From positions 47,436 to 111,435 of the IMG/VR virus record IMGVR_UViG_3300033074_000206: a DNA stretch of 64,000 nucleotides; one strand, 5' to 3'. The translations under genes were made by a program, and so were the position numbers. The stretch is from a virus (taxonomy: Duplodnaviria; Caudoviricetes). Shown here piece by piece: positions 6,369 through 58,152 of this stretch. The notes under the pieces are model-generated. The model was not told where the DNA came from. It saw nothing but the letters and a program-made list of their open reading frames with translations, and did not search any database. Position 1 is the stretch's first letter, and the number at the start of each line of letters is the position of its first letter.

Positions 6369-7457
6369 TTATCTCCTTTGTATTTGAATGTTTATATTTA
6401 GAATCGAATTTAATTCTTTTAATTTTTCATACTCTTCTAGCGAAATTTTATATTCAGCGGGATATATAAATTTTATACTAGAATAACTTTCTAATCTATC
6501 GATATCGTCAGCAACTAGCAGTATATCATCGTAGAGAGTTTTTTGAATTTTATCGACTGTTATAGTTTTTGAGATGTCTTCTTTATATAAGGACGATTCA
6601 TTTGTTAATGTTTTCACAGCATCGTTATACCCGTTAAAGTAATTTTGCATCAGCTGTGTTTCTGCACTTTGCGTATTAATTATATGTATTATACTATTAT
6701 GAACATATTGACTAATATAACTAAATGCATTTGCTTCTTGTCCTGATCTAGACGATATCATCTTATGATTAAAATTTCTCAAATATCTAAAAATTTTATT
6801 AGTGCTATCTGAATAGAATTCGTCTCTATAAGAATAACCACTGAATTTAGGTTTTTTTAATATATTTTTTATAATAAGTAGAACCATCTCTCCGAATCTC
6901 TCGTAAGAAGCTCTATCTATAATTGTTCTATATGAGATTTTCATTATTTTTTCTCTTAGAATTCTCTTGTATTTTTGAGGATTAACATTAGATCCGATGA
7001 TATGTTTTTTCATATATTTGTCTAATCTAGAGTAATCGGACTTTCTACTATTTATCCCGCGAGCCCTATCCACCATCTCTACTGTTACTGAGTGCATTTT
7101 TTCCAACAATACGTTGAATTTATCCAAGTTGTATCCGCAATCGTGAATCAACGACACTAAATTTTTCATATCTTCGTCTGGTAATAACAATAATTGCGAA
7201 GACTTGCATGTTAATAGATCCAAGTATATTTTCTTTATTTTACCAACTAACGCGGGTATTAACCTATTTGATTTTTCGTATTCTATCGATTTGTATTTTA
7301 GTATATATTTGTCTAATCTTTTAAATTTATTAGACATTGTTTCTACGAATAATCTATTATTTATTCTTAAAATTAATGATCTCAATTCGGTTTCGTTGAT
7401 GTATTGTGTTTTTGACTCTGCTTTTGATTTAGCCGAGCGTTTTTCTTTTTCTATCAA
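6369..7457 (-). CDS. gp55: Late sigma factor, T4 gp55-like (enlarged)
   Basis: YINETEL; GEM..LI...I..KPKFSGYSYRDEF.SD...Y..NF...NAFSY..Q...N motifs. Confidence 0.85.
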   Translation of the reverse strand: MIEKEKRSAKSKAESKTQYINETELRSLILRINNRLFVETMSNKFKRLDKYILKYKSIEYEKSNRLIPALVGKIKKIYLDLLTCKSSQLLLLPDEDMKNLVSLIHDCGYNLDKFNVLLEKMHSVTVEMVDRARGINSRKSDYSRLDKYMKKHIIGSNVNPQKYKRILREKIMKISYRTIIDRASYERFGEMVLLIIKNILKKPKFSGYSYRDEFYSDSTNKIFRYLRNFNHKMISSRSGQEANAFSYISQYVHNSIIHIINTQSAETQLMQNYFNGYNDAVKTLTNESSLYKEDISKTITVDKIQKTLYDDILLVADDIDRLESYSSIKFIYPAEYKISLEEYEKLKELNSILNINIQIQRR

Positions 7458-7589
7458 AAAATCTCCTTATTATTTAATATAAGATAATTATAATATAATG
7501 GATATTAATTAAAACAACGATATCAACACTAATGAGATGGAACGTTCGACGTTTATCGTAATATATAAATAAATTAAAAAGGAAGAACA

Positions 7590-8066
7590 TTGAATTATAA
7601 TAATTTAGCTCAAAAAACAAATTGGACTGCAGGGTCTGATAAATTTCCACTATTACAATTTTATTTAACAAACATTAGTATACCTGGATTGAATTTCAAT
7701 TATCCTGAAACTGGCGGGCGATTCGGTGCAAGAATAAATCTACCAGCCGATACGGTTTCGTATAATTCTTTAAATTTTGATTTTTTAATAGATGAGGATT
7801 TTGAGATCTATAAAACCTTTTATAAATATTTCATTGAGAGCGTGAGTGCCAAAAAAGGGACGTTCGCCGATATTATATTCAATCTTTGGGTTGAATTGAA
7901 TAATTCTAAAAGTAATAAAATATTAAAATTTGAATTTTATAATTGTAGAATAGAGACTATCGGCGATATCGAATTAGACACAACTTCAGATGAAACCGAA
8001 TCTGTTATGAATTTGAGTATTAAATTCGATTACTTTGAGTTAATCGAGGATAAGTTTCCGGGCTAG
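7590..8066 (+). CDS. gp3: Tail tube terminator / tail completion protein, gp3-like
   Basis: N.A..TN, F.L..ISIPG, FLIDEDF..Y, FDYF motifs; late promoter upstream. Confidence 0.75.
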   Translation: MNYNNLAQKTNWTAGSDKFPLLQFYLTNISIPGLNFNYPETGGRFGARINLPADTVSYNSLNFDFLIDEDFEIYKTFYKYFIESVSAKKGTFADIIFNLWVELNNSKSNKILKFEFYNCRIETIGDIELDTTSDETESVMNLSIKFDYFELIEDKFPG

Positions 8067-8081
8067 ATGCCCGGAAACTTA
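8051..8081. terminator. Hairpin between convergent genes
   Basis: TAAGTTTCCGGGC-TAGAT-GCCCGGAAACTTA perfect 13-bp stem. Confidence 0.7.
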
Positions 8082-8270
8082 TGATCTGTATGTGTTATCG
8101 CCAAAAGTCTGATGTCCGTTTGGCGTGTAGTTTCTTGAAGTTTTCTCTCCGCAATTATCGCAAATCGGTAATTTATCTTCAGAGTATTCTGAAATTGGAA
8201 TTCTCGTTTCTTTCTTGATATCTTTTTCTTTACACTCTATATTTGTGCATTTATATTCATATGTTGCCAT
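8079..8270 (-). CDS. FmdB-like zinc-ribbon protein
   Basis: MATYEYKC...C...P.CDNCG; start at MATYEY follows AAGGA RBS. Confidence 0.7.
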   Translation of the reverse strand: MATYEYKCTNIECKEKDIKKETRIPISEYSEDKLPICDNCGEKTSRNYTPNGHQTFGDNTYRS

Positions 8271-8341
8271 TATTTTCCTTTTAATTAAATTGTTTTCTAT
8301 TCGCATATATTGTCGCGACAAATAGTTTTGGTGTATTTGTA

Positions 8342-8869
8342 TTAATAAATAACTAAATATTTTTTATCATTTATCTTGTATGAGTATTTTATAACGTTTT
8401 CAGGTTGTAATTCTGAGAATTCTTGAGCATCACAAACATATATTAAATTATCAATATTGTTTGGCTGTTTAATTTTATCTATAAATTCTTGTTTATAAAC
8501 AATAAATTTCTTTCCTGCTATTGTTTCTATCTTTTCTGCAATAGTATCTAGGATTTCGCTATCTTTCATCGAGTATTCTGATTTGAAATAAGTTAACGGT
8601 ATTTTATTTTCGAGAGATGTTATTCTCTGGTCGAACATAGTATTTCGGATTTTTCTTGTTATCGTTAAGTCTGTTTTCGATAGTATCGGGCACCTTCCAA
8701 CTTTTATGATATTTTCTGATTTTAAATTACTGATATTTGCGATATGTATATTCAGAAGTTCGCAAATTTCGTTTCCTAGAACATGTTCTTTACCAAGATA
8801 TAGTCTGTGTACTGTATCTTGTTCTTTCATATTATATTTTATTTTTGACTCATTATTTTTTACTTGCAA
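8342..8869 (-). CDS. Hypothetical protein
   Basis: ORF with AAGGA RBS. Confidence 0.55.
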   Translation of the reverse strand: MQVKNNESKIKYNMKEQDTVHRLYLGKEHVLGNEICELLNIHIANISNLKSENIIKVGRCPILSKTDLTITRKIRNTMFDQRITSLENKIPLTYFKSEYSMKDSEILDTIAEKIETIAGKKFIVYKQEFIDKIKQPNNIDNLIYVCDAQEFSELQPENVIKYSYKINDKKYLVIY

Positions 8870-9060
8870 TATATTCCTTTGTATTTTAGATTTGTATAGA
8901 TTAACAGTAGTAAGATAATTTGATTTTTTGTTTTTGAAGGAGCTCCAGAAATTCTGGAGCCAGAATCGAGTTACGATGTAATTTTTGTATTTAGAATTAT
9001 ATAATGTTTTATATTAAATTTACCTTAAATTTAGAAGTTAATTCTAATGCGTCTGAAGCC

Positions 9061-9271
9061 TTAAAGATGCCTTAAAGTTAAAATAAAAATTTATTTTTAA
9101 TAACAGAGCTTTTAATCTATAAACGAAGTTTAACATATTAAAGATGCCTTAAAGTTAAAATAAAAATTTATTTTTAAATAACAGAGCTTTTAATCTATAA
9201 ACGAAGTTTAAAATATTAAAGATACCTTAAAGTTAAAATAAAAATTTATTTTTAAATAACAGAGCTTTTAA
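9061..9271. repeat. Three tandem ~78-bp repeats containing the genome-wide CCTTAAA(G/C)TTAAAATAAAAATTTATTTTTA motif
   Basis: Core motif begins at about 9070, 9147 and 9225. Confidence 0.85.
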
Positions 9272-9284
9272 ATATTCGATTATT

Positions 9285-9890
9285 TTAAAAGACATTAAAA
9301 CATAAAAGAGGCGCTGTTAAAAATAGGAAATGTATAAATCCATAAATTAATTCTTGGTTTTCCCACCCTCTTGAAAGATTTAAATATCTAGAATGATATT
9401 CGAAATCCAATCTTTTACCAAGTTCTGCGGCAATAGGAAATCCAATAGATAACCCCATAAGAGTCACTGGTACGAACCAGAGAGGTATCAATTGTATCGA
9501 ATACAAGAAAGTTACTGGTAGAACCCACCAAAATAATCCTCTTATTGCTAGAGCGAGTCTGCAATAATTTTTATAATCATCTCGTTGTTCAATAAAAGTT
9601 TCTGCAATATAATGCACCCACGGAAAACTCTTTCCATCTGGATTATCGTAATCTTCAGGAGAGTCAGAATATGTTAAATATCCAACCCATTTACCCCAAC
9701 AAAAAGATTCACCTAATATATATAATCCAGCGAATAACAATCCGATTAGAATAGAAATATACGAATTATAATATAAAAAACTTAAAGAAAATATTAAAAT
9801 ACACCAGTAAATGGCGTAAATTATATTACCAGAGATTTTCCAGAATATTTTTCCTGTTCCTCTCCATCTATTTAGTATTGGTTCTAACAT
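9285..9890 (-). CDS. Membrane protein
   Basis: Several hydrophobic segments. Confidence 0.6.
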   Translation of the reverse strand: MLEPILNRWRGTGKIFWKISGNIIYAIYWCILIFSLSFLYYNSYISILIGLLFAGLYILGESFCWGKWVGYLTYSDSPEDYDNPDGKSFPWVHYIAETFIEQRDDYKNYCRLALAIRGLFWWVLPVTFLYSIQLIPLWFVPVTLMGLSIGFPIAAELGKRLDFEYHSRYLNLSRGWENQELIYGFIHFLFLTAPLLCFNVF

Positions 9891-42616: not shown

Positions 42617-44224
42617 TTATTCTAGAGTTAAAATTGAACTAAATTCGTTTGTTCCTGAATTAATCATATTCAATTTAACTGTTTCTACACGATTATTAAA
42701 TTTAATAATCACATTTATTATTATTTCCTTTAAATTATCGCTTTTCGTAACATTTACTCTAGCTCCTGTTATACCACCACTCGCGAGAATATCGTCTAGA
42801 ATAACTTTCATTTCTCTAGCAATAGCACCCCTTTTTTGTAGAGTATTTTCTTCGAAAACCATTTTTCTATTTAGTTTTTCTGTTGCTCTTTCGATATAAT
42901 TTAAAGTATTTCTCAAATACAGATTATCTGCTAAAGATTCATAATCAACAAACATTTTATCAGATAATAGATAATTTTTTCGTAAACTATTTACGCCTTT
43001 TTTATAATAATAGTCGATATCATTCTTATTATGAAAATATCTTATATCTATATAATTTGATTTTATATTATATTTATATCCAGCACAAGTACCCCAAGGG
43101 TTCGTGATTGAATTCATAGCTTTTATTCCGGCGATATCTCCTGAAACGCTTACTAATATGTTTTTATCAGTAAACCCATCTTTTATATATTTTAACCCTA
43201 GTACAAATAAGCAGAATTCAGATTTAGGTAACGAATCCACATAAGAGTCAATTAAATTTCTTGATTTATTATCTAATTTAAATAATTTTTTTATATCTAT
43301 AAGAATATTTTCAGAATAAACTGTATTAGATTCTTCAGATATCTTTATTACTATTGGCGTAGTCGATTCTTCGCTCAAATACCCTGAATCTGATGTTTCG
43401 ACAATTTGTACGGTGTGTAAGCTATCGTCGTATTCTTCTGTTGATAATATCCCATTCGAACTATCGTCGTTATTCGATTTTATCTGAAGAAAATAAAAAA
43501 ATTCAGGAGGTATACTAACGAAAGCAATACAGTCTCTCCTATATTCAGCTAGTTGAATAGCAAGTTCATTATATCTAGAATTTCCTATTATTATGTCTAT
43601 TTCAAAATTTTCTTTTGTGAATATTGAATAAGCTTCTTCAACATCATCGTAAGAAGCTGGTTTTGTATATCCGCCTTGTAATTGGTACGTTCCATTTTCA
43701 AGTATCACAGATTCGATATAATTCGACTCGAAATTTTCCAGATCGTCGTCGATATTAAATTGTAGATGTTCTACTAATATATCTTTTCTATATATTAGTA
43801 CTTGATATTCTTTTTCTATAATCGATAAATCCAATCCTGTTGTATCGTTTTGGATTTTAACAGTCAATAAATCGCCCCATCCACCGACAGTATTCGCTCT
43901 TATTCCGTTATTGTTAGATTTTGTTGAATTCGCCCCAGTAACGCGGTATACTATTAATGGTTTAGAGTACTGAAGATAATTATAGCATTGATACCAATCA
44001 TCGATGAACGGAGCAATTGCTCTACCGAATGTCGTTTTAAACTCTAATGCTGATGATACGACTATTGGTTCATTTACAGGTCCTCTTTCGAATTCGCCTA
44101 CGAATAATGCTATATTTTTAGACGGATCTATAAGAGTGCTACGACTTTCTGATTCTGATGTGATGACATTAGGAGCTATTGTTTGGATTAATCTCGTCTT
44201 TACATTTTCTGTTGACATCGGCAC
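42617..44224 (-). CDS. gp18: Second, divergent, intron-free tail sheath-like protein
   Basis: APNV...E; FVGEFERGPVNEP; DWYQCYNYLQYS; GDIAGI; NPW...AG; LY.R..L.YIE. Confidence 0.85.
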   Translation of the reverse strand: MPMSTENVKTRLIQTIAPNVITSESESRSTLIDPSKNIALFVGEFERGPVNEPIVVSSALEFKTTFGRAIAPFIDDWYQCYNYLQYSKPLIVYRVTGANSTKSNNNGIRANTVGGWGDLLTVKIQNDTTGLDLSIIEKEYQVLIYRKDILVEHLQFNIDDDLENFESNYIESVILENGTYQLQGGYTKPASYDDVEEAYSIFTKENFEIDIIIGNSRYNELAIQLAEYRRDCIAFVSIPPEFFYFLQIKSNNDDSSNGILSTEEYDDSLHTVQIVETSDSGYLSEESTTPIVIKISEESNTVYSENILIDIKKLFKLDNKSRNLIDSYVDSLPKSEFCLFVLGLKYIKDGFTDKNILVSVSGDIAGIKAMNSITNPWGTCAGYKYNIKSNYIDIRYFHNKNDIDYYYKKGVNSLRKNYLLSDKMFVDYESLADNLYLRNTLNYIERATEKLNRKMVFEENTLQKRGAIAREMKVILDDILASGGITGARVNVTKSDNLKEIIINVIIKFNNRVETVKLNMINSGTNEFSSILTLE

Positions 44225-49421: not shown

Positions 49422-52400
49422 TTATGCTCCGCCGATTACTTCGGAAAATGCCCGAGTTCCTGCATTTGTGAATTTCAAATGAATGAATTCCATTTATATT
49501 CATATAGATTCGTTAATTCTATACCGAGCTTTGAGCTCTGCTCCGAATTTCTCCAGAGATTGGACTATATCTTCATCTTTAGATTTCTCTACTAAGATGT
49601 CTACCATTTTGAGACGACTACGTCTCTACTCCCCGTTACAGGATAGTCTCTGAACTTTACTCTTGTCGAGTCTTAGCTGCTGATTTTCTTGCTTTTAATT
49701 TCTTAAAAGTTTAGATTTTCCAGACAATTAGATAGATTATAATTATATATTTCTATATAATGCGCCAAATTAATAATTATTAATATCGTATAGCAACGTA
49801 GGTCGGACGGATGAACACCATTTATATTCATATAGATTCGTTAATTCTATACCGAGCTTCGAACTCTGCTCTGAATTTCTCCAGAGATTAGACTATATCT
49901 TCATCTTATTGATTTAAGATGCAAACCATTTCCTTTTGACTTCAAAAGTACTCCTCTATGAGGATAGTCGTTGAACATTTTTCTCTTTAGAGAAACTTTG
50001 ATGCTGATTATCATTTTAGATTGAATCTAAATTAGACTTTCCAGACAATTAGATTTGTTTAATGTGAACTTTGTTAAATCCACTACTAGTTGATTCCTGC
50101 TTATCACGTCAGGGGTGTTATTAGATTCATCACAGCATTTATATTCATATAGATTCGTTAATTCTATACCGAGCTTTTAACTCTGCTCATAATTTCTTAT
50201 GAGATTGGACTATATCTTTATCCGCTTTGGATAGTTCCTATTTCCATCTACATAGATGTACTCCTCCACGAGGATAGTCTCTGAACTTTGTATTCTATGA
50301 ATACCTTAGCTGCTGATTGTCATTTTAGATTGAAATCTAAATTAGACGTTCCAGACAATTAAAGAACTTTAAATATCGATGTTACCACCGATAGGTGACT
50401 AGCAATTAATCACCATGAAGTCTTGTATACCTCTTCCTGCCTGTACAGACGAAAGGAATGGCTTAACCATACTGATAATTCTATTCATTTATATTCATAT
50501 AGATTCGTTACTTCTATATCGGGCGCTACACCCAGCTCATAATTTCTTACGAGATCAGACTATATCTTATTCTTATACTCTTGTGTATAAGAATCTCTCC
50601 ATTTCGAATCACTTGATTCTACGTACAATGTACTAGTCGTTGAACTTTGTATTCTGACGAATACCTTAGCTGCTGATTGATATATTCTACAATTAGAACT
50701 TAATTATTCCAGACAATTAGAAGAGTTTTCTGTTTATATTGATATAAACAGGCGCAAAATTTTACGCGTAAAATTATCATTAAACTCCATCACTTGATAC
50801 TTCATTTATATTCATTTAAGTTCGTTATTCTTAAATCGAGATTTAACTCTGCTTTATATTTCTATAAAGATTAGACCATATCTTCATCTTAAAAATTTTG
50901 GTTCCATTAAGATGCTCTCTATTTCGAGTTCACTTGAACTCTACGAACTTTCGTTCTGGTCGTTGAATCTTTTTCGCAATGCGAAACTTGACTGCTGATT
51001 ATCATTTTAGATTAGATCTAAATTAGACGTTCCAGACAATTAAAAGAGTTTTTGATGACCAATATTTCAGCCATCTTAGCTAATGCTCTTTCTAGGGTAT
51101 TGCTTACTATATTTAATTAAATTCGTTACATTTAATTGGAGAATATCTCCCTCTGAATTTCTCCAGAGATTGGACTATATCTTAATTATTTCTATAAGAA
51201 ATAATCTGCACCGCTTCGGAAATACTTATTTCCTACTCTACTAGTAATATACGTTCGATAGTCTCTGAACTTTGTTCTTTTATAGAACCTTAGCTGCTTA
51301 TTGATATATCTTAAATTCGATTTAAGACTTAATTATTCAAGACAATTCAATGCATTTTATGGTCTTTCCAATTTTAACCAAAAAGACCTCTAACATTTCA
51401 TATGCATTCGTTCTAATTCGTTAGATTAGAACCGAGCTTTTAACTCTGCTTAATGTTTTCATTAAGATTAGACTATATCTTATTCTTATTCTTATATAAG
51501 AACCAAACCATTTCCACTCACTTGAGTGTACTCACATTACGTGATAGTCGTTGAACTTTTCTATTTCTAGACTTAGCTGCTGATTATCATTTTAGAATCT
51601 TGATCTAAATTAGACGTTCCAGACAATTAGATTTGTTTATCCAGAGCCAATGTTTTAATAAACTCTGTCAACATATTTTATTTAGTATAATCCGCTATTT
51701 TATACCTGGAATTTACCACTCATAATTTCTTATGAGATTAGACTATATCATACATTTTTAACAAGTTGTAAAAAGTTGTAAAAATGTTGCACCGTTTCGA
51801 GATAGCTTTATCTCTACTCCCTCTCGGGATAGTCGTTGAATCTTTTTCTCTATGAGAAACTTGACTGCTGATTGTCGTTTTAGATTGAAATCTAAATTAG
51901 ACGTTCCAGACAATTAGATGCATTTATAGTTCGCGTGACGAATGTTCACGAACTCGCTTTATCTAACAATGTTTTTTGCCCCCAAAGAACTGTCGATTAT
52001 ATTCATTCTAATTCGTTAGATTAGAATCGAGCTTTTAACTCTGCTCTTTATTTCTAAAGAGTCTAGACTATATCTTCATCTTATCAATTTAAGATGCAAA
52101 CCATTTCGATATTACTCAATATCTACGTGCAGAGCACTAGTCGTTGAACTTTTCTATTTCTAGACTTAGCTGCTGATTATCATTTTAGAATCTTGATCTA
52201 AATTAGACGTTCCAGACAATTAGATTTGTTTATTCAGAGCTACATTTAACCCTGACCTGGGAAACTTCATTTATATTCATATAGATTCGTTAATTCTATA
52301 CCGAGCTCGGAGCTCTGCTTTATATTTCTATAAAGATTAGACCATATCTTTATCCTCTAAGGATAGTTCCTATTTCGATATTACTCAATATCTACGTGCA

Positions 52401-55400
52401 GAGCACTGGTCGTTGAATCTTTTTCTCTTAGAGAAACTTGACTGCTTATTGGCGTATTATAGCTCTGCTATAATTTAGCTATCCAAGACAATTAAAGAAC
52501 TTTTTCATTTTATATCTCTATAAAAGGTTGCAATTTTATTTCACAACTGGGTTAATCCCGTTTTTGTATAAGAAATCTCTCCATTATATTCATTCTAATT
52601 CGTTAGATTAGAATCGAGCTTGGAGCTCCGCTCATAATTTCTTATGAGATTGGACTATATCTTCATCTTTAGATTTCTCTATTAAGATGTCTACCATTTC
52701 CACTCACTCGAGTGTACTCCTCCACGAGGATAGTCTCTGAACTTTGTATTCTATGAATACCTTAGCTGCTGATTGATATATTCTTATCATTAAGAACTTA
52801 ATTATTCCAGACAATTAGATAGATACATAATTTATATTTCTATAAACTTCAACTTAAGATTTTTAAATTGACTGTGTCGGATTAAACGCAAGTTTAATAC
52901 AATTTTTGATTTGTCCTCTTTCAAGCATTTTATTCATATAGACTCGTTAATTCTATACCGATCTTATTCTGCTTTATATTTCTATAAAGATTAGACTATC
53001 TCTTATTCCTATATCGACATATAAGAACCTCTCCATTTCGATATCACTCGATATCTACGTGCTACGCACTAGTCGTTGAATCTTTTTCTCGTAATGAGAA
53101 ACTTGACTGCTGATTTGCATATTATATCATCGTTTTATCTAATATAATTTAGCTGTTCCAGACAATTAAAAGAGTTTATAGCAAGCCATAGATTTAACCT
53201 GCTGAGGCCCACCATGATGCTCTATCAGACGACGTTTGAGATCTCAGCCCCGCACAATCCCCTGCAAGATTCACCCAACGGTTTTTATCGTTGTATCTCG
53301 TTTTATTCAGTATAAATCGCAACATTATACCCAAAATTTTAGTTGATAACTCTAAAATTGCTATATATTTCTATATAGACTAGACTATATCTTTACCCTT
53401 CTTATTTTTGCCTTTAGTTAGGGTAGTCACCATTTCGAGTATCATTAGCTTATACTCTACTCCCTCTCAGGATAGTCGTTGAACCTTGTTTTATAAATTA
53501 GTTTAGACTCATCTCGGAGTATATTATTTATTAAGCTATTTTTGCATACCAACCAATCAAATGTAGAAATCCGTATTTATTAGCCATTATTTTACCATTA
53601 ATAGTCTGATATAACTTTGTATTATTTTCGAAAGACCTTCTTAATGCCGTATTAGGTAAATTATATTTGTTGCAAAAATCTATAAAGGAACCTTCGCATA
53701 TATAACTCAATTCATCTTTATAATTATATATTAATATAGTTTTTGTACTGTAATGATTTTTACCATTATTTTTCAATTTATACTCTTCTGTAGCCTTTGT
53801 TATTTTTTGTTTTTTAGCTCCATTTAATAGTGGTTCTTTATGTTTCAATTTATACTCTTCTGTACTTATAGTAATTAGTCTTTTTGTAGTTGCTTCTATT
53901 CTACTGATTTTGTTTTTTAATATTGATTTTTCTGAATATCTCGATTCTTTCCAGTTTTTAATAGCTTCTAATGTTTGCATACCTTTATTACCGTCCTTTC
54001 CATTCTCGGCAATTAAATTAGCCCAATCAGTAGATTCGACTATATTGTTTTCTTCAGAAAATTTCAAAGCAATTGGTTCTACGTAATCTTCATCAGAAAC
54101 ATTTAACGAAAATATACCATATATCTCCATGGTAACTTCATCGCCATGTTTTTGTAAATGTTTCTTCCAATAAACTCCACTTCCATGATAATACTTTTGT
54201 AAATCTTCTACTGTAAAATGTTTAGAAGTTTTACCAAAATATTTCTTTCCTGTTATATTATGTGTAGCAATATATAATGTAACCTTATCTTTCATTCTCG
54301 CTCCTCCGTATAAAAGAACGAAAGGCAAATAACGTTCTTTTATTATATTTATAAAACCTTGGCTGCTGATTGTCCAATCTCAATCTTATTTATCATTTCT
54401 TTTTAAGAAACTATAATTGAGCTCTAAGGATATTCCAGCAATTAAATGACTGTTCGAAAGAAATTTCTTTCTTAAGCGACTTTTCTAAAATCGTATTGAT
54501 ATTTGTAGTTTCCAATCGCACAACAGAACATACTATTAAAATTTAAAGAACCAGTAGTTCTCCAAGTAATAAGAGATTGAACAGCGTCGCTTGATTTTTT
54601 ACCAACCGTGTCAGAGTACTTCGCTCCAATAAAAGCGATCACGTCTTCCCTTGAATCTGCAAGTTCCTTTGCACTTGCACCAGAATCTAATTCGTTACCG
54701 ATTACGGTGTCAATCATTTATATTCATTTTAATTCGTTAGATTAAAATCGAGCTTCGAACTCTGCTTAATGTTTCCATTAAGATTAGACTATATCTTCAT
54801 CTTAAATTAATAAGATGCTCTCCATTTCGATATGACTTCATATCTACGTGCTGCGCACTAGTCGTTGAACTTTGTTCTGTTATAGAACCTTAGCTGCTTA
54901 TTAGCATATTATAGTAGAGCTATAATTTAGCTATCCAAGACAATTAAAAGAGTTTTCATTTTAGAATTACTTCTAAAAGCGACAAATTCCATCGATTTCT
55001 TCTTTATTCATAAATACGTCATAAGCATTTAGTAAATCATCTGCTTGAATATCAGAATCTCTTCCAATAACAAGTTTAATTGTACCAGCATTCGAGAAGA
55101 TATAAGATTTTATAGCTTCAGTAATATCCGTATTGTCTTTAATAAAGATATAAGAACTCCCGTTATTAATAACTGTTTCGATATAAGTACTTTTATTGTT
55201 AATATCTTTAGCCGTAGCATTAAAATCAACAGTAAAAACTTCTTTTATTTCGTCTTCGTATTTAATGATGATACCAACTTGAGTTCCTGTAGGTTTATAT
55301 TCAAATAAATCATCTAAAGAAACACCGTCAAACGCTTTTTTAGAGTTACCGAAATCTCCCGGAACAGCTATTGCTATTTCAAGTTTTTCGGACCATCTAC

Positions 55401-58152
55401 CCGGATTCTTAGCAATTATCTTAATTTTAGAATCAGCATGAGAGAAAGCAATTGAAGTTTCTTTTGTTTCGTAATCATCTGCATTTTCTACAACTAAATA
55501 ATTACCGTAGTACTTATCTGCTGAGATAGAAGCAACTGAACTAGATTTAAGAGCTTCAAAAGTTCCATTTATGTGAGCTTTATAAGAGTTTACTGCTGTT
55601 CCTGTCGTAAAGGCTGTTTCGATATTTCTATCAAGAACAAGTGTAGTATTTGTAGTTGTTGTAACCGTCTTTACGTAATAAAAATTAAGCGTGTCTGTTC
55701 CAAAACTAATTAAATCGCCAACTGCAATTTTTGTAGTGTTAGACACAACTGCAGTAGCAGTACTATTTGCAGTAATTGCTGTTGTTACAGTAACACCTGG
55801 GATAGCTGTGTGTGTTCCACCAGTATTCGCTGCTCTTGAAATAAGTAATTTATTTGAATAACTTAAATAGTTATACGTTTGGTCGATTATATTCATTCTA
55901 ATTCGTTAGATTAGAATCGAGCTTTTAACTCTGCTCTTTATTTCTAAAGAGTCTAGACTATATCTTCATCTTTAGATTGCTCTATTAAGATGTCTACCAT
56001 TTCCACTTACTTAAGTGTACTCCTCTATGAGGATAGTCGTTGAAGTTTAATAATTAAAATAAAGTCGGTATAATTCTTCTACATCTAAAGAATTATTTCT
56101 CCCTTTCTTAGCGTTTTCTTCCCAAGGAATCAATGCTAAATTGTGTTTGCTTGATATCATTTGATACGGTATATTTTGTTTAAATCCATTAAAAATAGAA
56201 AATTTGTGATCTAATTCGTATGAGTCTGGATGAATACGGCTTTTTCTAAGTCCAAAATCTATATTCATTTTTCTATATTCCTTTTCAGTTTCCCTACAAA
56301 CTAAAAATTTATATAATTCGTAATCATTCTTAGATGATAATGGCATCCATATATTCGCAGCTTCTTTAGATAATCTAATCTGATTTTGAAATTCAGCACT
56401 CTTAAAGATACAATCGACACCATACTTCGAAAGATTAGTTTGTTTAGATTTATTTATTATCTCTGGAACTTGAAATGTATACGCAACACCATATTTTTCA
56501 ATCATACTAGGAATATATACAGTATTCATGAAATCGCTAGATTTCATATGATGGTCAACGCCAAAATTGACTATACGAGTTTCCTTTATTTTGTTCTTAA
56601 ACTCGTTATATTGAAATGGGTTAGAAACATTATATCTTTCAAGACAAGTTGATTCTCTTTTTTGCGCAAAAATCTCAGTTCTTTGAAAAATATCGCCATA
56701 TTTTTCAATACAAGTTGATTGTATTTTATCATTTATATTAGAATAATCCGTATTAAGAACTTTCTTAGTTTTTATTTCATCATTTTTCATCGGATGATCA
56801 ACACCGTATTTGATTATATTTGTGACTTTAGATTTCTCTCTAGCTTTTATACCGCCTTGATGTTGTCGACATTTTTTACAATGAGTATTATATCCTTTAT
56901 TAAACGATATATAATTAGTTTCTGATAGACAATATTCGCACAATTTACAACCGTAAAATATATCGTATATCTCTTTAGAAGAAAAAGATATATTATTTAA
57001 ATAATTAGTATCAATACTACCGCTATCCAATAAAATATACTTTTTATATTTCAATAAATCTTCTATATTATCTATATTAAACGATTGTTTTATTTTATTC
57101 GAATACCCTCTATTGAATGATAGAAATTTTATATTTTTATAAAATTCTTTATCTATTTCGAAAATATCATCATATAACTCTTGATAACTTTCGTAGTTTA
57201 ATTTCTTTTTTATAGATTGTTTATTTATTCCGTTATAATATAATTCTTTAGCTTTACACATTTTATTTTAATTATCCTTACCTGCTGATTTTCGTATTTT
57301 ATAATCTATTTATAAAACTTAGACGTTCCAGACAATTAGATAGATTTCTAATATATTATTTCTAATATATATTGGCATTTTCACCAATCATTGTAGTTCT
57401 CATTAGATGGTTTTCCGTAATACGTAATTAATTCATCAACTGAAGTGATTATTTGATATTTATTAACAGGTCCTTGGTGGAAATTTCCACTAAATACTGC
57501 AACTGAATTAGATACTGTCGGTACGATTTGACTCGCGTCGCATTTATATTCATATAGATTCGTTACTTCTATACCGATCTTATTCTGCTCTTTATTTCTA
57601 AAGAGATTAGACTATATCTTATTCTTATATTCTTTTATATAAGAATCTCTCCATTTCGAGATAACTTTATCTCTACGAGCATATGCTCTAGTCGTTGAAC
57701 TTTGTATTCTATGAATACCTTAGCTGCTGATTTTCATTTTAGAATCTTGATCTAAATTAGACGTTCCAGACAATTAGAAGAGTTTTACTTTTTATATCAC
57801 TATAAAAGGAGACCTACTGATCTCTGTAATGAAACTTTTTGTTCATTCTAATTCGTTAGACTAGAACCGATCTTATTCTGCTCCAGATTTCTCTAGAGAA
57901 CGGACTATATCTTAATCTCCTCGGAGATTTGAACCATTTCGAGATAACTTTATCTCTACTCCCAAAGGGATAGTCTCTGAACTTTACTCTATTTTAGAGT
58001 CTTAGCTGCTGATTGATATATTAAAATATATATTCTTTATAATAAGAAATATATTAAACTTAATTATTCCAGACAATTAGATTCATTTATTACTCCGATA
58101 TCGCTAAAGGAGAGTGCAATCATTCCACACCTGGACTTAACATTTCTGCCAT
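49422..58152 (-). CDS. gp18: Tail sheath protein (T4 gp18-like), 637 aa after splicing, split into 18 exons by 17 group I introns. Exons 5'->3': 58152-58127, 57834-57820, 57540-57383, 55883-54991, 54714-54490, 53298-53197, 52925-52867, 52581-52543, 52267-52249, 51993-51948, 51671-51662, 51398-51381, 51102-51069, 50802-50764, 50485-50409, 50135-50078, 49818-49792, 49490-49422
   Basis: Joined exons total 1914 nt in one open frame: MAEMLSPGVFITEIDASQIVPTVSNSVAVFSGNFHQGPVNKYQIITSVDELITYYGKPSNENYNDWYQTYNYLSYSNKLLISRA...KEEIDIDTVIGNE...GNYKYQYDRYNDKNRWVNLAGDCAGLRSQTSSDRASWWASAGLERGQIKNCIKLAFNPTQSMRDFLYKNGINPVVSFPGQGTVLWGQKTLLDKASSFDRVNVRGLFNTLERALAKMAKYQVMEFNDNFTRNRIISMVKPFLSSVQAGRGIQDFMVICDESNNTPDVISRNQLVVDVFIRPTYVAEFIHLKFTNAGTRAFSEVIGGA*. 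Motifs match T4 gp18 (LSPGV, YKYQYD.YND..RWV, FDR.NVR.LF, CD..NNTP.VI.RN). AAGGA RBS precedes the ATG. Track ORFs 54973..55896 and 54472..54717 are exons 4 and 5. Confidence 0.96.
49491..49791 (-). mobile_element. Group I intron 17 (301 nt)
   Basis: P1 TGCT/GGCG with a longer AT-rich loop; conserved core; junction TYVA|EFIH. Confidence 0.9.
49819..50077 (-). mobile_element. Group I intron 16 (259 nt)
   Basis: P1 GTGGAT/GTTCAC; junction LVVD|VFIRP. Confidence 0.92.
50136..50408 (-). mobile_element. Group I intron 15 (273 nt)
   Basis: P1 GGTGAT/GTCACC; junction FMVI|CDES. Confidence 0.92.
50486..50763 (-). mobile_element. Group I intron 14 (278 nt)
   Basis: P1 GCGT/GCGC; junction NFTR|NRII. 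Confidence 0.92.
50803..51068 (-). mobile_element. Group I intron 13 (266 nt)
   Basis: P1 GATGGCT/GGTCATC; junction AKMA|KYQV. Confidence 0.92.
51103..51380 (-). mobile_element. Group I intron 12 (278 nt)
   Basis: P1 GGTCTTTT/GAAAGACC; junction RGLF|NTLE. Confidence 0.92.
51399..51661 (-). mobile_element. Group I intron 11 (263 nt)
   Basis: P1 CAGAGT/GCTCTG; P10 AACATT pairs with 3' exon AATGTT; junction FDRV|NVRG. Confidence 0.92.
51672..51947 (-). mobile_element. Group I intron 10 (276 nt)
   Basis: P1 AGTTCGT/GCGAACT; followed by a 10-nt exon. Confidence 0.92.
51994..52248 (-). mobile_element. Group I intron 9 (255 nt)
   Basis: P1 TCAGGGT/GCTCTGA; junction PGQG|TVLWG. Confidence 0.92.
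52268..52542 (-). mobile_element. Group I intron 8 (275 nt)
   Basis: P1 GTTGT/GCAAC; junction INPVV|SFPG. Confidence 0.92.
52582..52866 (-). mobile_element. Group I intron 7 (285 nt)
   Basis: P1 TCAAT/GTTGA; splicing creates AT|G (QSMRD). Confidence 0.92.
52926..53196 (-). mobile_element. Group I intron 6 (271 nt)
   Basis: P1 GCAGGT/GCTTGC; conserved core; junction ASAG|LERG. Confidence 0.92.
53299..54489 (-). mobile_element. Group I intron 5 (1191 nt) with GIY-YIG ORF; the most divergent intron of the set
   Basis: P1 CGAT/GTCG; P element AATTGCTGGAA rather than AATTGTCTGGAA; ORF between Q and R; junction YQYD|RYND. Confidence 0.92.
53531..54295 (-). CDS. Intron-encoded GIY-YIG homing endonuclease
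   Basis: LYIATHNITGKKYFGKT...YHGSG...ANL motif; start moved to MKDKV (54295) because GGAGGAG RBS lies just upstream. Confidence 0.8.
   Translation of the reverse strand: MKDKVTLYIATHNITGKKYFGKTSKHFTVEDLQKYYHGSGVYWKKHLQKHGDEVTMEIYGIFSLNVSDEDYVEPIALKFSEENNIVESTDWANLIAENGKDGNKGMQTLEAIKNWKESRYSEKSILKNKISRIEATTKRLITISTEEYKLKHKEPLLNGAKKQKITKATEEYKLKNNGKNHYSTKTILIYNYKDELSYICEGSFIDFCNKYNLPNTALRRSFENNTKLYQTINGKIMANKYGFLHLIGWYAKIA
54715..54990 (-). mobile_element. Group I intron 4 (276 nt)
   Basis: P1 CGAT/GTCG; conserved core; junction KEEID|IDTVIG. Confidence 0.92.
56047..57261 (-). CDS. Intron-encoded putative HNH homing endonuclease (404 aa)
   Basis: CxxC...CxxC zinc motifs, repeated T..EKYGV modules, C-terminal ELDHKFS...NL...EN..K HNH-like motif. 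Confidence 0.75.
   Translation of the reverse strand: MCKAKELYYNGINKQSIKKKLNYESYQELYDDIFEIDKEFYKNIKFLSFNRGYSNKIKQSFNIDNIEDLLKYKKYILLDSGSIDTNYLNNISFSSKEIYDIFYGCKLCEYCLSETNYISFNKGYNTHCKKCRQHQGGIKAREKSKVTNIIKYGVDHPMKNDEIKTKKVLNTDYSNINDKIQSTCIEKYGDIFQRTEIFAQKRESTCLERYNVSNPFQYNEFKNKIKETRIVNFGVDHHMKSSDFMNTVYIPSMIEKYGVAYTFQVPEIINKSKQTNLSKYGVDCIFKSAEFQNQIRLSKEAANIWMPLSSKNDYELYKFLVCRETEKEYRKMNIDFGLRKSRIHPDSYELDHKFSIFNGFKQNIPYQMISSKHNLALIPWEENAKKGRNNSLDVEELYRLYFNY
57307..57314 (-). promoter_or_regulatory. Late promoter TATAAATA inside intron 3, upstream of the HNH ORF
   Basis: Exact octamer about 45 nt before the ATG at 57261, with AAGGA RBS between. Confidence 0.55.
57541..57819 (-). mobile_element. 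Group I intron 2 (279 nt)
   Basis: P1 GAGAT/GTCTC; same P/Q/R/S core; ends ...ATATAAATG. Confidence 0.92.
57835..58126 (-). mobile_element. Group I intron 1 of sheath gene (292 nt, no ORF)
   Basis: Exon ends GGTGT and pairs with intron GCAC (P1, U.G). Core P AATTGTCTGGAA, Q AATCAGCAGC, R TTCAGAGACTA, S AAGATATAGTCC. Ends in G. Confidence 0.92.

Follow-up and report, generated by a model that had tools for sequence, protein, structure and literature searches.

Tandem group I introns have been described in a phage tail gene in Twort, in which orf142 carries three such introns and a 23-nucleotide (nt) exon is either skipped or retained (PMC10136302). The mitochondrial cox1 gene of Agaricus bisporus has 19 introns, 18 of them of group I, with exons of 3 to 288 nt, a structure that was confirmed by cDNA (PMC2987802), and the Jug phages have about 18.5 group I introns per 360- to 402-kilobase (kb) genome, with the terL gene in two to three pieces (PMC12880540). 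Here we examined the tail-sheath gene that a T4-like, uncultured phage carries in a 64-kb stretch (referred to as the window) of the 111-kb IMG/VR virus record IMGVR_UViG_3300033074_000206, a record with an estimated completeness of 58%. This gene, which extends on the minus strand from position 58152 to position 49422, was found to consist of 18 exons and 17 group I introns.

Comparison with the described systems indicated both similarities and differences. As in Twort orf142, mutually similar introns lacking an open reading frame (ORF) lie in tandem in a structural gene of the phage tail, with a micro-exon between them, and the likeness of neighbouring introns poses the problem of exon skipping in both cases. 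Unlike orf142, the sheath gene has 17 rather than 3 introns, a smallest exon of 10 nt rather than 23 nt and two putative endonuclease ORFs; furthermore, splicing has been shown for Twort, whereas here it is predicted from the sequence. Agaricus cox1 is similar in that one conserved gene serves as a reservoir of group I introns, with tiny exons and a varying occupancy of sites. The phage introns differ in being ~270 nt long, mostly ORF-less and restricted to the conserved parts of the gene, and in that translation is coupled to transcription. Like the introns of T4 td, nrdB and nrdD, those of the array interrupt conserved coding sequence of a phage, have an in-frame stop downstream of the 5' splice site, place endonuclease-type ORFs in a peripheral loop and abolish their own homing site (PMC3984707), but T4 has one intron per gene, whereas 15 of the 17 introns examined here are ORF-less and all known copies in the genome are present in one gene. 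The Jug phages are likewise uncultured and have essential genes split by many small ORF-less group I introns; their introns are distributed over many genes, whereas a similar number is present here in a single 1.9-kb coding sequence (CDS). Overall, the locus represents the same type of element and the same mechanism at an extreme density, Twort orf142 being the nearest phage precedent and Agaricus cox1 the nearest in scale. In the literature searched, no phage gene was described with group I introns in numbers beyond a handful, Twort having three. With 17 introns in 1.9 kb of coding sequence and exons of as little as 10 nt, the sheath gene comes near to the record of fungal cox1, and does so with ribosomes trailing the polymerase.

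The explanation that we consider probable is that a functional gene for a gp18-type sheath was colonised by a small family of group I introns and that the micro-exons are leftovers of independent insertions. The order of the exons was established from collinear tblastn matches to intact sheath proteins, and the boundaries were set by the presence of a U before the 5' splice site, a G as the last intron base and a reading frame matching that of the homologue. The open pieces matched the sheath proteins of Vibrio phage Va1 and Campylobacter phage NCTC12673 collinearly, from the first Met to the stop codon. Of the 8731 nt of the gene, 6817 are intronic, and joining of the exons gave a stop-free CDS of 1914 nt encoding 637 amino acids (aa). 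The exon sizes listed in the original prediction, including those of the 10-nt exon 11 (TTGACAGAGT; 51671-51662) and the 893-nt exon 4, were exact to the base.

The joined protein exhibited 67% identity to Va1 gp18 over its full length of 637 aa. The Va1 sheath contains PF04984, PF17482 and PF22671, its matches to structures of T4 gp18 had E values of 1e-78 or better, and the similarity of the window protein, which was collinear, full length and inclusive of the conserved C-terminal domain, placed it among the gp18-type contractile tail sheaths. Residues conserved to 95% or more in 97 intact homologues number 226, of which 220 were retained and six deviated; in the region of the micro-exons, 125 of 129 such residues were retained. 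Two relatives with interrupted sheath genes, L003 and L006, were used to examine selection. At 76 to 79% protein identity, the rate of synonymous substitution (dS) was >1, and hence saturated, while the nonsynonymous rate (dN) was ~0.11 over residues 440 to 637. The dN/dS ratio was about 0.04 to 0.1. As the frame was intact, the conserved residues were present and the dN/dS ratio was low, a pseudogene was rejected and the interrupted gene was read as apparently functional, which would require the accurate removal of 17 introns.

The identity of the introns was examined with the Rfam covariance model RF00028 at its gathering cut-off of 50 bits. Scores of 61.7 to 91.2 bits were obtained for 15 of the 17 introns, all on the minus strand between positions 49541 and 58136. 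The two ORF-carrying introns, 3 and 5, fell below the cut-off with 36.8 and 36.6 bits, respectively. A family hidden Markov model (HMM) was built from the 15 small introns. It matched both flanks of the ORF in intron 3, at E = 5e-14 and 3e-35, and a match at E = 9e-20 covered the 3' part of intron 5. Searches of the window and of the 111-kb record with the family HMM and RF00028 detected no group I match outside the sheath gene. The small introns are 255 to 301 nt long and 52 to 80% identical to each other, and this level of divergence indicated that the family, judged by its sequences, is old rather than the product of a recent burst.

A U preceded the 5' splice site and a G ended the intron in all 17 cases, and the reading frame was restored by intron removal. 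To call P1, the end of the upstream exon was paired with bases 1 to 45 of the intron, and the longest helix in which the last U of the exon pairs with a G was taken. The P1 helices obtained with the intron's own exon were 4 to 8 bp in length (mean, 5.6 bp), as compared to 3.1 bp for guides tested against the exons of other introns. Each of the 17 introns had a guide sequence of its own, with a U-G wobble at P1 in every instance. Pairing in P1 was preserved despite base changes in orthologous introns of relatives; for example, intron 16 has GUGGAU/GUUCAC in the window and GUAGAU/GUCUAC in L003, an exchange of a G-C for an A-U pair. From these features we infer that all 17 introns are probably removed by guanosine-dependent splicing. 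Each guide would pair with the last 4 to 8 nt of its own upstream exon, with even a 10-nt exon holding a full P1, and a short P10 would claim at most one shared base. Since every intron has its own guide, the gene would therefore stay usable. Splicing would be co-transcriptional and largely independent for each intron.

Table 1. Exons and introns of the tail-sheath gene, in order of transcription, with window coordinates.
Feature	Position (strand)	Length (nt)	Site (after codon)	Remarks
Exon 1	58127..58152 (-)	26		start codon; MAEMLSPG + 2 nt
Intron 1	57835..58126 (-)	292	8.7	group I; Rfam 62 bits; P1 GGUGU/GCACU
Exon 2	57820..57834 (-)	15		micro-exon; P10 nt 3-7, P1 nt 11-15
Intron 2	57541..57819 (-)	279	13.7	group I; Rfam 78.7 bits; L006 orthologue with ORF
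Exon 3	57383..57540 (-)	158
Intron 3	55884..57382 (-)	1499	66.3	group I; 404-aa DUF7487/homing-endonuclease-type ORF at 56047-57261
Exon 4	54991..55883 (-)	893		least conserved; aligned with T4 gp18 exposed domains I-II
Intron 4	54715..54990 (-)	276	364	group I; Rfam 91.2 bits
Exon 5	54490..54714 (-)	225
Intron 5	53299..54489 (-)	1191	439	group I; 265-aa ORF at 53531-54328, no Pfam/PHROG match
Exon 6	53197..53298 (-)	102
Intron 6	52926..53196 (-)	271	473	site also filled in L003
Exon 7	52867..52925 (-)	59
Intron 7	52582..52866 (-)	285	492.7
Exon 8	52543..52581 (-)	39
Intron 8	52268..52542 (-)	275	505.7	site also filled in L006
Exon 9	52249..52267 (-)	19		micro-exon; P10 nt 2-6, P1 nt 13-19
Intron 9	51994..52248 (-)	255	512	guide GCUCUGA, near-identical to intron 11 guide
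Exon 10	51948..51993 (-)	46
Intron 10	51672..51947 (-)	276	527.3	L006 orthologue: 381-aa DUF7487 ORF between 5' splice site and guide
Exon 11	51662..51671 (-)	10		TTGACAGAGT; intron 10 P10 nt 2-5, intron 11 P1 nt 5-10
Intron 11	51399..51661 (-)	263	530.7	guide GCUCUG
Exon 12	51381..51398 (-)	18		micro-exon; P10 nt 2-7, P1 nt 11-18
Intron 12	51103..51380 (-)	278	536.7	P1 of 8 bp
Exon 13	51069..51102 (-)	34
Intron 13	50803..51068 (-)	266	548	site also filled in L003
Exon 14	50764..50802 (-)	39
Intron 14	50486..50763 (-)	278	561
Exon 15	50409..50485 (-)	77
Intron 15	50136..50408 (-)	273	586.7	site also filled in L003
Exon 16	50078..50135 (-)	58
Intron 16	49819..50077 (-)	259	606	site also filled in L003, compensatory P1 change
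Exon 17	49792..49818 (-)	27
Intron 17	49491..49791 (-)	301	615
Exon 18	49422..49490 (-)	69		includes stop codon

The distribution of the introns agreed with that given in the original prediction: the first 67 codons are interrupted three times and the last 199 codons 13 times, and no insertion falls within exon 4. With uniform placement, the probability of an intron-free exon 4 was 2.3e-5 and that of at least 13 introns within the last 597 nt was 1.6e-4. The introns had also been predicted to sit in conserved sites, and this was borne out when the insertion sites were mapped onto sheath conservation: placement was not independent of conservation, and all sites were in conserved segments. Mean conservation within 5 aa on either side of the 17 sites was 0.92, as compared to a gene mean of 0.76; every site exceeded the median, and a value this high was not reached in any of 100,000 permutations (p < 1e-5). 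A similar effect was detected at the nucleotide level, with identities at the sites of 0.80 versus 0.74 in comparison to the intron-less relative L013 (p = 0.011) and 0.74 versus 0.64 in comparison to the intron-less Va1 (p = 0.00015), although this effect was weaker than that at the protein level. Alignment indicated that the N- and C-terminal parts of the protein correspond to the conserved interior domains III and IV of T4 gp18 (PMC3004832).

Conservation was also sufficient to account for the clustering. As 68% of equally conserved positions fall in the last 199 codons, the presence of 13 of the 17 introns in this region was expected (P = 0.32), and a special clustering mechanism is therefore not needed; such a mechanism, acting beyond conservation, was rejected, with P values of 0.32 to 0.97. 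The micro-exons would then be functionless, having been left when many insertions landed in the ~200 most conserved codons. When 13 points were placed at random in 597 nt, for which the mean spacing is ~46 nt, the probability that the smallest gap was 10 nt or more was ~0.05. Because a random smallest gap is usually below 10 nt, this result hints at a lower limit of exon size set by the need for P1, and this limit would lie at ~8 to 10 nt.

Relatives of the sheath gene were then compared. A 127-kb IMG/VR record, L003, encodes a sheath with 79% protein identity and has five introns, of which four share sites 6, 13, 15 and 16 and one is at codon 495; all group I matches in that record were within the sheath gene. 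The metagenome contig L006 (76% protein identity) has 11 introns, sharing sites 2, 5, 8, 10 and 11 and having additional sites at window codons 388, 447.7, 468.3, 510, 517 and 551.7. The L006 exons include ones of 10, 13, 21, 26 and 31 nt, and the 10-nt exon is identical to that of the window and is also flanked by two introns. At least seven further sites were filled only in relatives, and intact sheath alleles, with up to 81% protein identity, were present, indicating a presence/absence polymorphism. Among 87 related loci, 62 had no intron of this family and most of the others had one, often at the site of intron 1, the maximum being 11. With 0, 1, 5 or 11 introns in its members, at sites that differ in part, the clade is well suited to studies of intron gain and loss and of the homing cycle. 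Sheaths of smaller or greater length in the list of homologues were considered as possible products of intron-split genes, but no group I match was detected on a search of two such loci, L010 and L012.

ORFs were present in two of the 17 window introns, and these two further members of the family would be carriers of endonuclease-type ORFs. The 404-aa ORF of intron 3 matched DUF7487 and PHROG homing-endonuclease families, while no family match in Pfam or PHROG was found for the 265-aa ORF of intron 5. ORFs are present in the L006 orthologues of introns 2 and 10, both ORF-less in the window: one of 231 aa in the former and one of 381 aa, of the DUF7487 family as in intron 3, in the latter. In the orthologue of intron 10 (L006 positions 7242-8710), the guide was located 1.2 kb from the splice site with which it must pair. 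The presence or absence of ORFs in orthologous introns fits an invasion followed by loss of the endonuclease; the introns would have arrived by endonuclease-driven homing into conserved targets, with subsequent ORF loss. Homing endonucleases target conserved sites, and an intron-bearing allele is immune to its own endonuclease (PMC3984707). The proposal that the introns sit in conserved sites favoured by such enzymes was upheld as to the conservation, and the link to endonucleases is plausible and is the standard explanation. Shielding of the gene from competitor nucleases would follow from the homing model.

The position of stop codons suggested an adaptation to translation. In 11 of the 17 introns, no more than 9 nt separated the 5' splice site from the first in-frame stop, and in none of the 17 was this distance above 48 nt; in the other two frames, a stop within 9 nt occurred in 7 of 34 cases (Fisher p = 0.004). 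In-frame stops after the 5' splice site are known as an adaptation of bacterial and phage introns that lie in translated genes (PMC3984707), and ribosomes reaching an unspliced intron would be released by these stops.

Several observations weighed against colonisation of a gene that remains functional. The P1 helix was only 4 bp long in introns 4, 5, 14 and 17, and the predicted P10 pairings were weak, with 3.8 bp for an intron's own exon and 2.7 bp for those of others. In L006, 35 conserved residues, corresponding to window residues 553-587, are missing between two introns, at L006 positions 9054-9359, and no convincing P1 was found for the intron at this gap. The gap could be due either to an exon-deleting recombination between similar introns or to an assembly collapse, and L006 may be defective or mis-assembled, which weakens it as evidence for function. 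Finally, the array imposes a cost of an extra 6.8 kb of transcription, and the yield of mature message scales as the 17th power of the per-intron efficiency. An efficiency of 0.95 would give a yield of 0.42 (0.95^17), which is awkward for a protein needed at 138 copies, the number of sheath protein copies in the T4 tail (PMC3004832), unless splicing is very efficient.

Three other explanations of the array had little probability. Decay of the interrupted gene, with its work being done by an intact paralogue, was made conceivable by a second, uninterrupted sheath-family ORF of 535 aa ~5 kb downstream, but the interrupted gene has kept its frame, 220 of the 226 conserved residues and a low dN/dS ratio. 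Furthermore, an orthologue of the paralogue (29% identity, E = 6e-52) adjoins the sheath gene of the intron-free relative L010; the paralogue is therefore present beside an intact sheath gene and is not a replacement, and we consider decay to be very improbable. Assembly of the array from repeated intron sequence as an artefact would be compatible with the near-identical 3' tails common to the introns and with a collapse between two introns at the L006 gap. Mis-assembly would be expected to drop or shuffle exons, however, and all 18 were present, in order and in frame; the same architecture was also found in independent contigs from other samples, which leaves an artefact with almost no probability. 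The suggestion in the original prediction that 17 guanosine-dependent steps act as a timer, or as a checkpoint on tail assembly that senses guanosine triphosphate (GTP), could draw on the length of the primary transcript, 8731 rather than 1914 nt, which at ~45 nt/s would delay the 3' end by ~2.5 min, and on the drop in yield with the 17th power of efficiency. No regulatory sign was present in the sequence, and the number of introns is not conserved among relatives of the same clade, which have 0, 1, 5 or 11, a presence/absence pattern as expected of selfish elements. Group I ribozymes have a micromolar affinity for guanosine, whereas cellular GTP is millimolar, which counts against a GTP checkpoint. 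The timer thus found no support, the intron number varying freely among close relatives, and we give this idea scarcely any credence.

The arrangement of the micro-exons had led to the claim that neighbouring ribozymes must share or compete for the same exon bases, with ordered splicing or exon skipping as possible consequences. This claim was overstated, as each P1 was located wholly within its own upstream exon, including the exons of 10, 15, 18 and 19 nt. Overlap between predicted P10 and P1 was confined to exon 11, in which a single nucleotide, base 5, belongs both to the P10 of intron 10 (UGAC/GUCA) and to the P1 of intron 11 (CAGAGU/GCUCUG); the other micro-exons provide separate bases for the two pairings. 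A forced order is further disfavoured because P10 is often dispensable. There was, nevertheless, evidence in favour of an obligatory order or cooperation in which mis-ordering leads to skipped isoforms. In addition to the shared base, a GUCAC-GCGAACU element was retained in the L006 orthologue, and P10 and P1 were just 3 to 5 nt apart in exons 2 and 12, where the cores may clash; with folded cores 0 to 5 nt apart, a steric clash is possible. The guides of introns 9 (GCUCUGA) and 11 (GCUCUG) are nearly alike and can form 6 to 7 bp with each other's exon ends, with 7 bp between the intron 11 guide and the exon 9 end, and this predicted cross-pairing is a real fidelity risk. In a simple folding model, the probability of the intron 11 P1 was 0.99 with the tail of intron 10 upstream and 0.20 after ligation of exons 9 to 11, and the minimum-energy fold obtained when the upstream context was 100 nt paired the guide with exon 9. 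Skipping is known for the exon of Twort orf142 and for a 34-nt exon of Coxiella 23S rRNA, and engineered tandem introns were shown experimentally to splice at an upstream junction serving as a distal 5' splice site (PMC10136302). The folding difference was small, however, and the outcome depended on the length of the context, with rival structures less than 1 kcal/mol apart at 60 nt. Moreover, the likeliest predicted skip, of exons 10 and 11 (56 nt), was frame-breaking, as were the other skips predicted from cross-pairing; since the 56-nt skip disrupts the frame, its product would be waste rather than an isoform. An ordered pathway is thus possible and not demanded by the sequence, and skipping has a potential basis in cross-pairing, but most skips would disrupt the reading frame; a micro-exon-imposed order was considered unlikely. 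Little weight was likewise given to a broader possibility, that the 13-intron block forms one unit with a fixed co-transcriptional order and a joint inheritance that erases all endonuclease targets in the conserved core of the gene. At the RNA level, ribozymes 10 to 19 nt apart would be unable to fold together, each downstream P1 hairpin would form before ligation of the upstream exon, as in the model of intron 11, and sheath output would hinge on the order. At the DNA level, recombination would not be resolved within exons as short as those separating the introns, and the block would spread whole in mixed infections.

The similarity of the guides also bears on the origin of the array by independent insertions. 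It fits a derivation of intron 9 or intron 11 from the other by a move to a look-alike site, and colonisation would then have involved local transposition, in one instance or more, between sites that share a 6-nt guide complement. The target exon ends of these two introns both read CAG(A/G)GU. The array could serve as a test bed for the limits of ribozyme proximity, for the minimum exon that can hold both P1 and P10 and for splicing fidelity with near-identical guides. It also has a consequence for annotation, as gene finders detect only fragments and such phages seem to be sheath-less.

Other features of the locus were noted. A T4-type portal gene was present directly upstream of the sheath gene. 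The paralogue at 42617-44224 (-) is strongly diverged, being 21 to 46% identical to gp18-type sheaths at its N terminus, middle and C terminus. A second sheath-like ORF in L010 was considered as a displaced exon and rejected, as it is the orthologue of this paralogue. A megablast search returned no near-identical phage records, and a search of viral contigs for an exact 15-nt core motif gave scattered single matches at about the level of chance, a result that is uninformative as to the spread of the family. In the first 66 codons (57383-58152 versus L006 877-2050), dS was 0.37, as compared to ~1.13 in the rest of the gene; for this small sample, the low N-terminal value could be left from co-conversion near the site of intron 2, which both genes share, or from a recent exchange there. 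In seven other loci (L007, L008, L009, L042, L049, L059 and L071), an intron of the family ended right before the start of the sheath match, which was at residue 10 in six of the seven and at residue 4 in L042. These introns appear to lie at the site of intron 1, after codon 9; this site would then be the most widespread of the clade.

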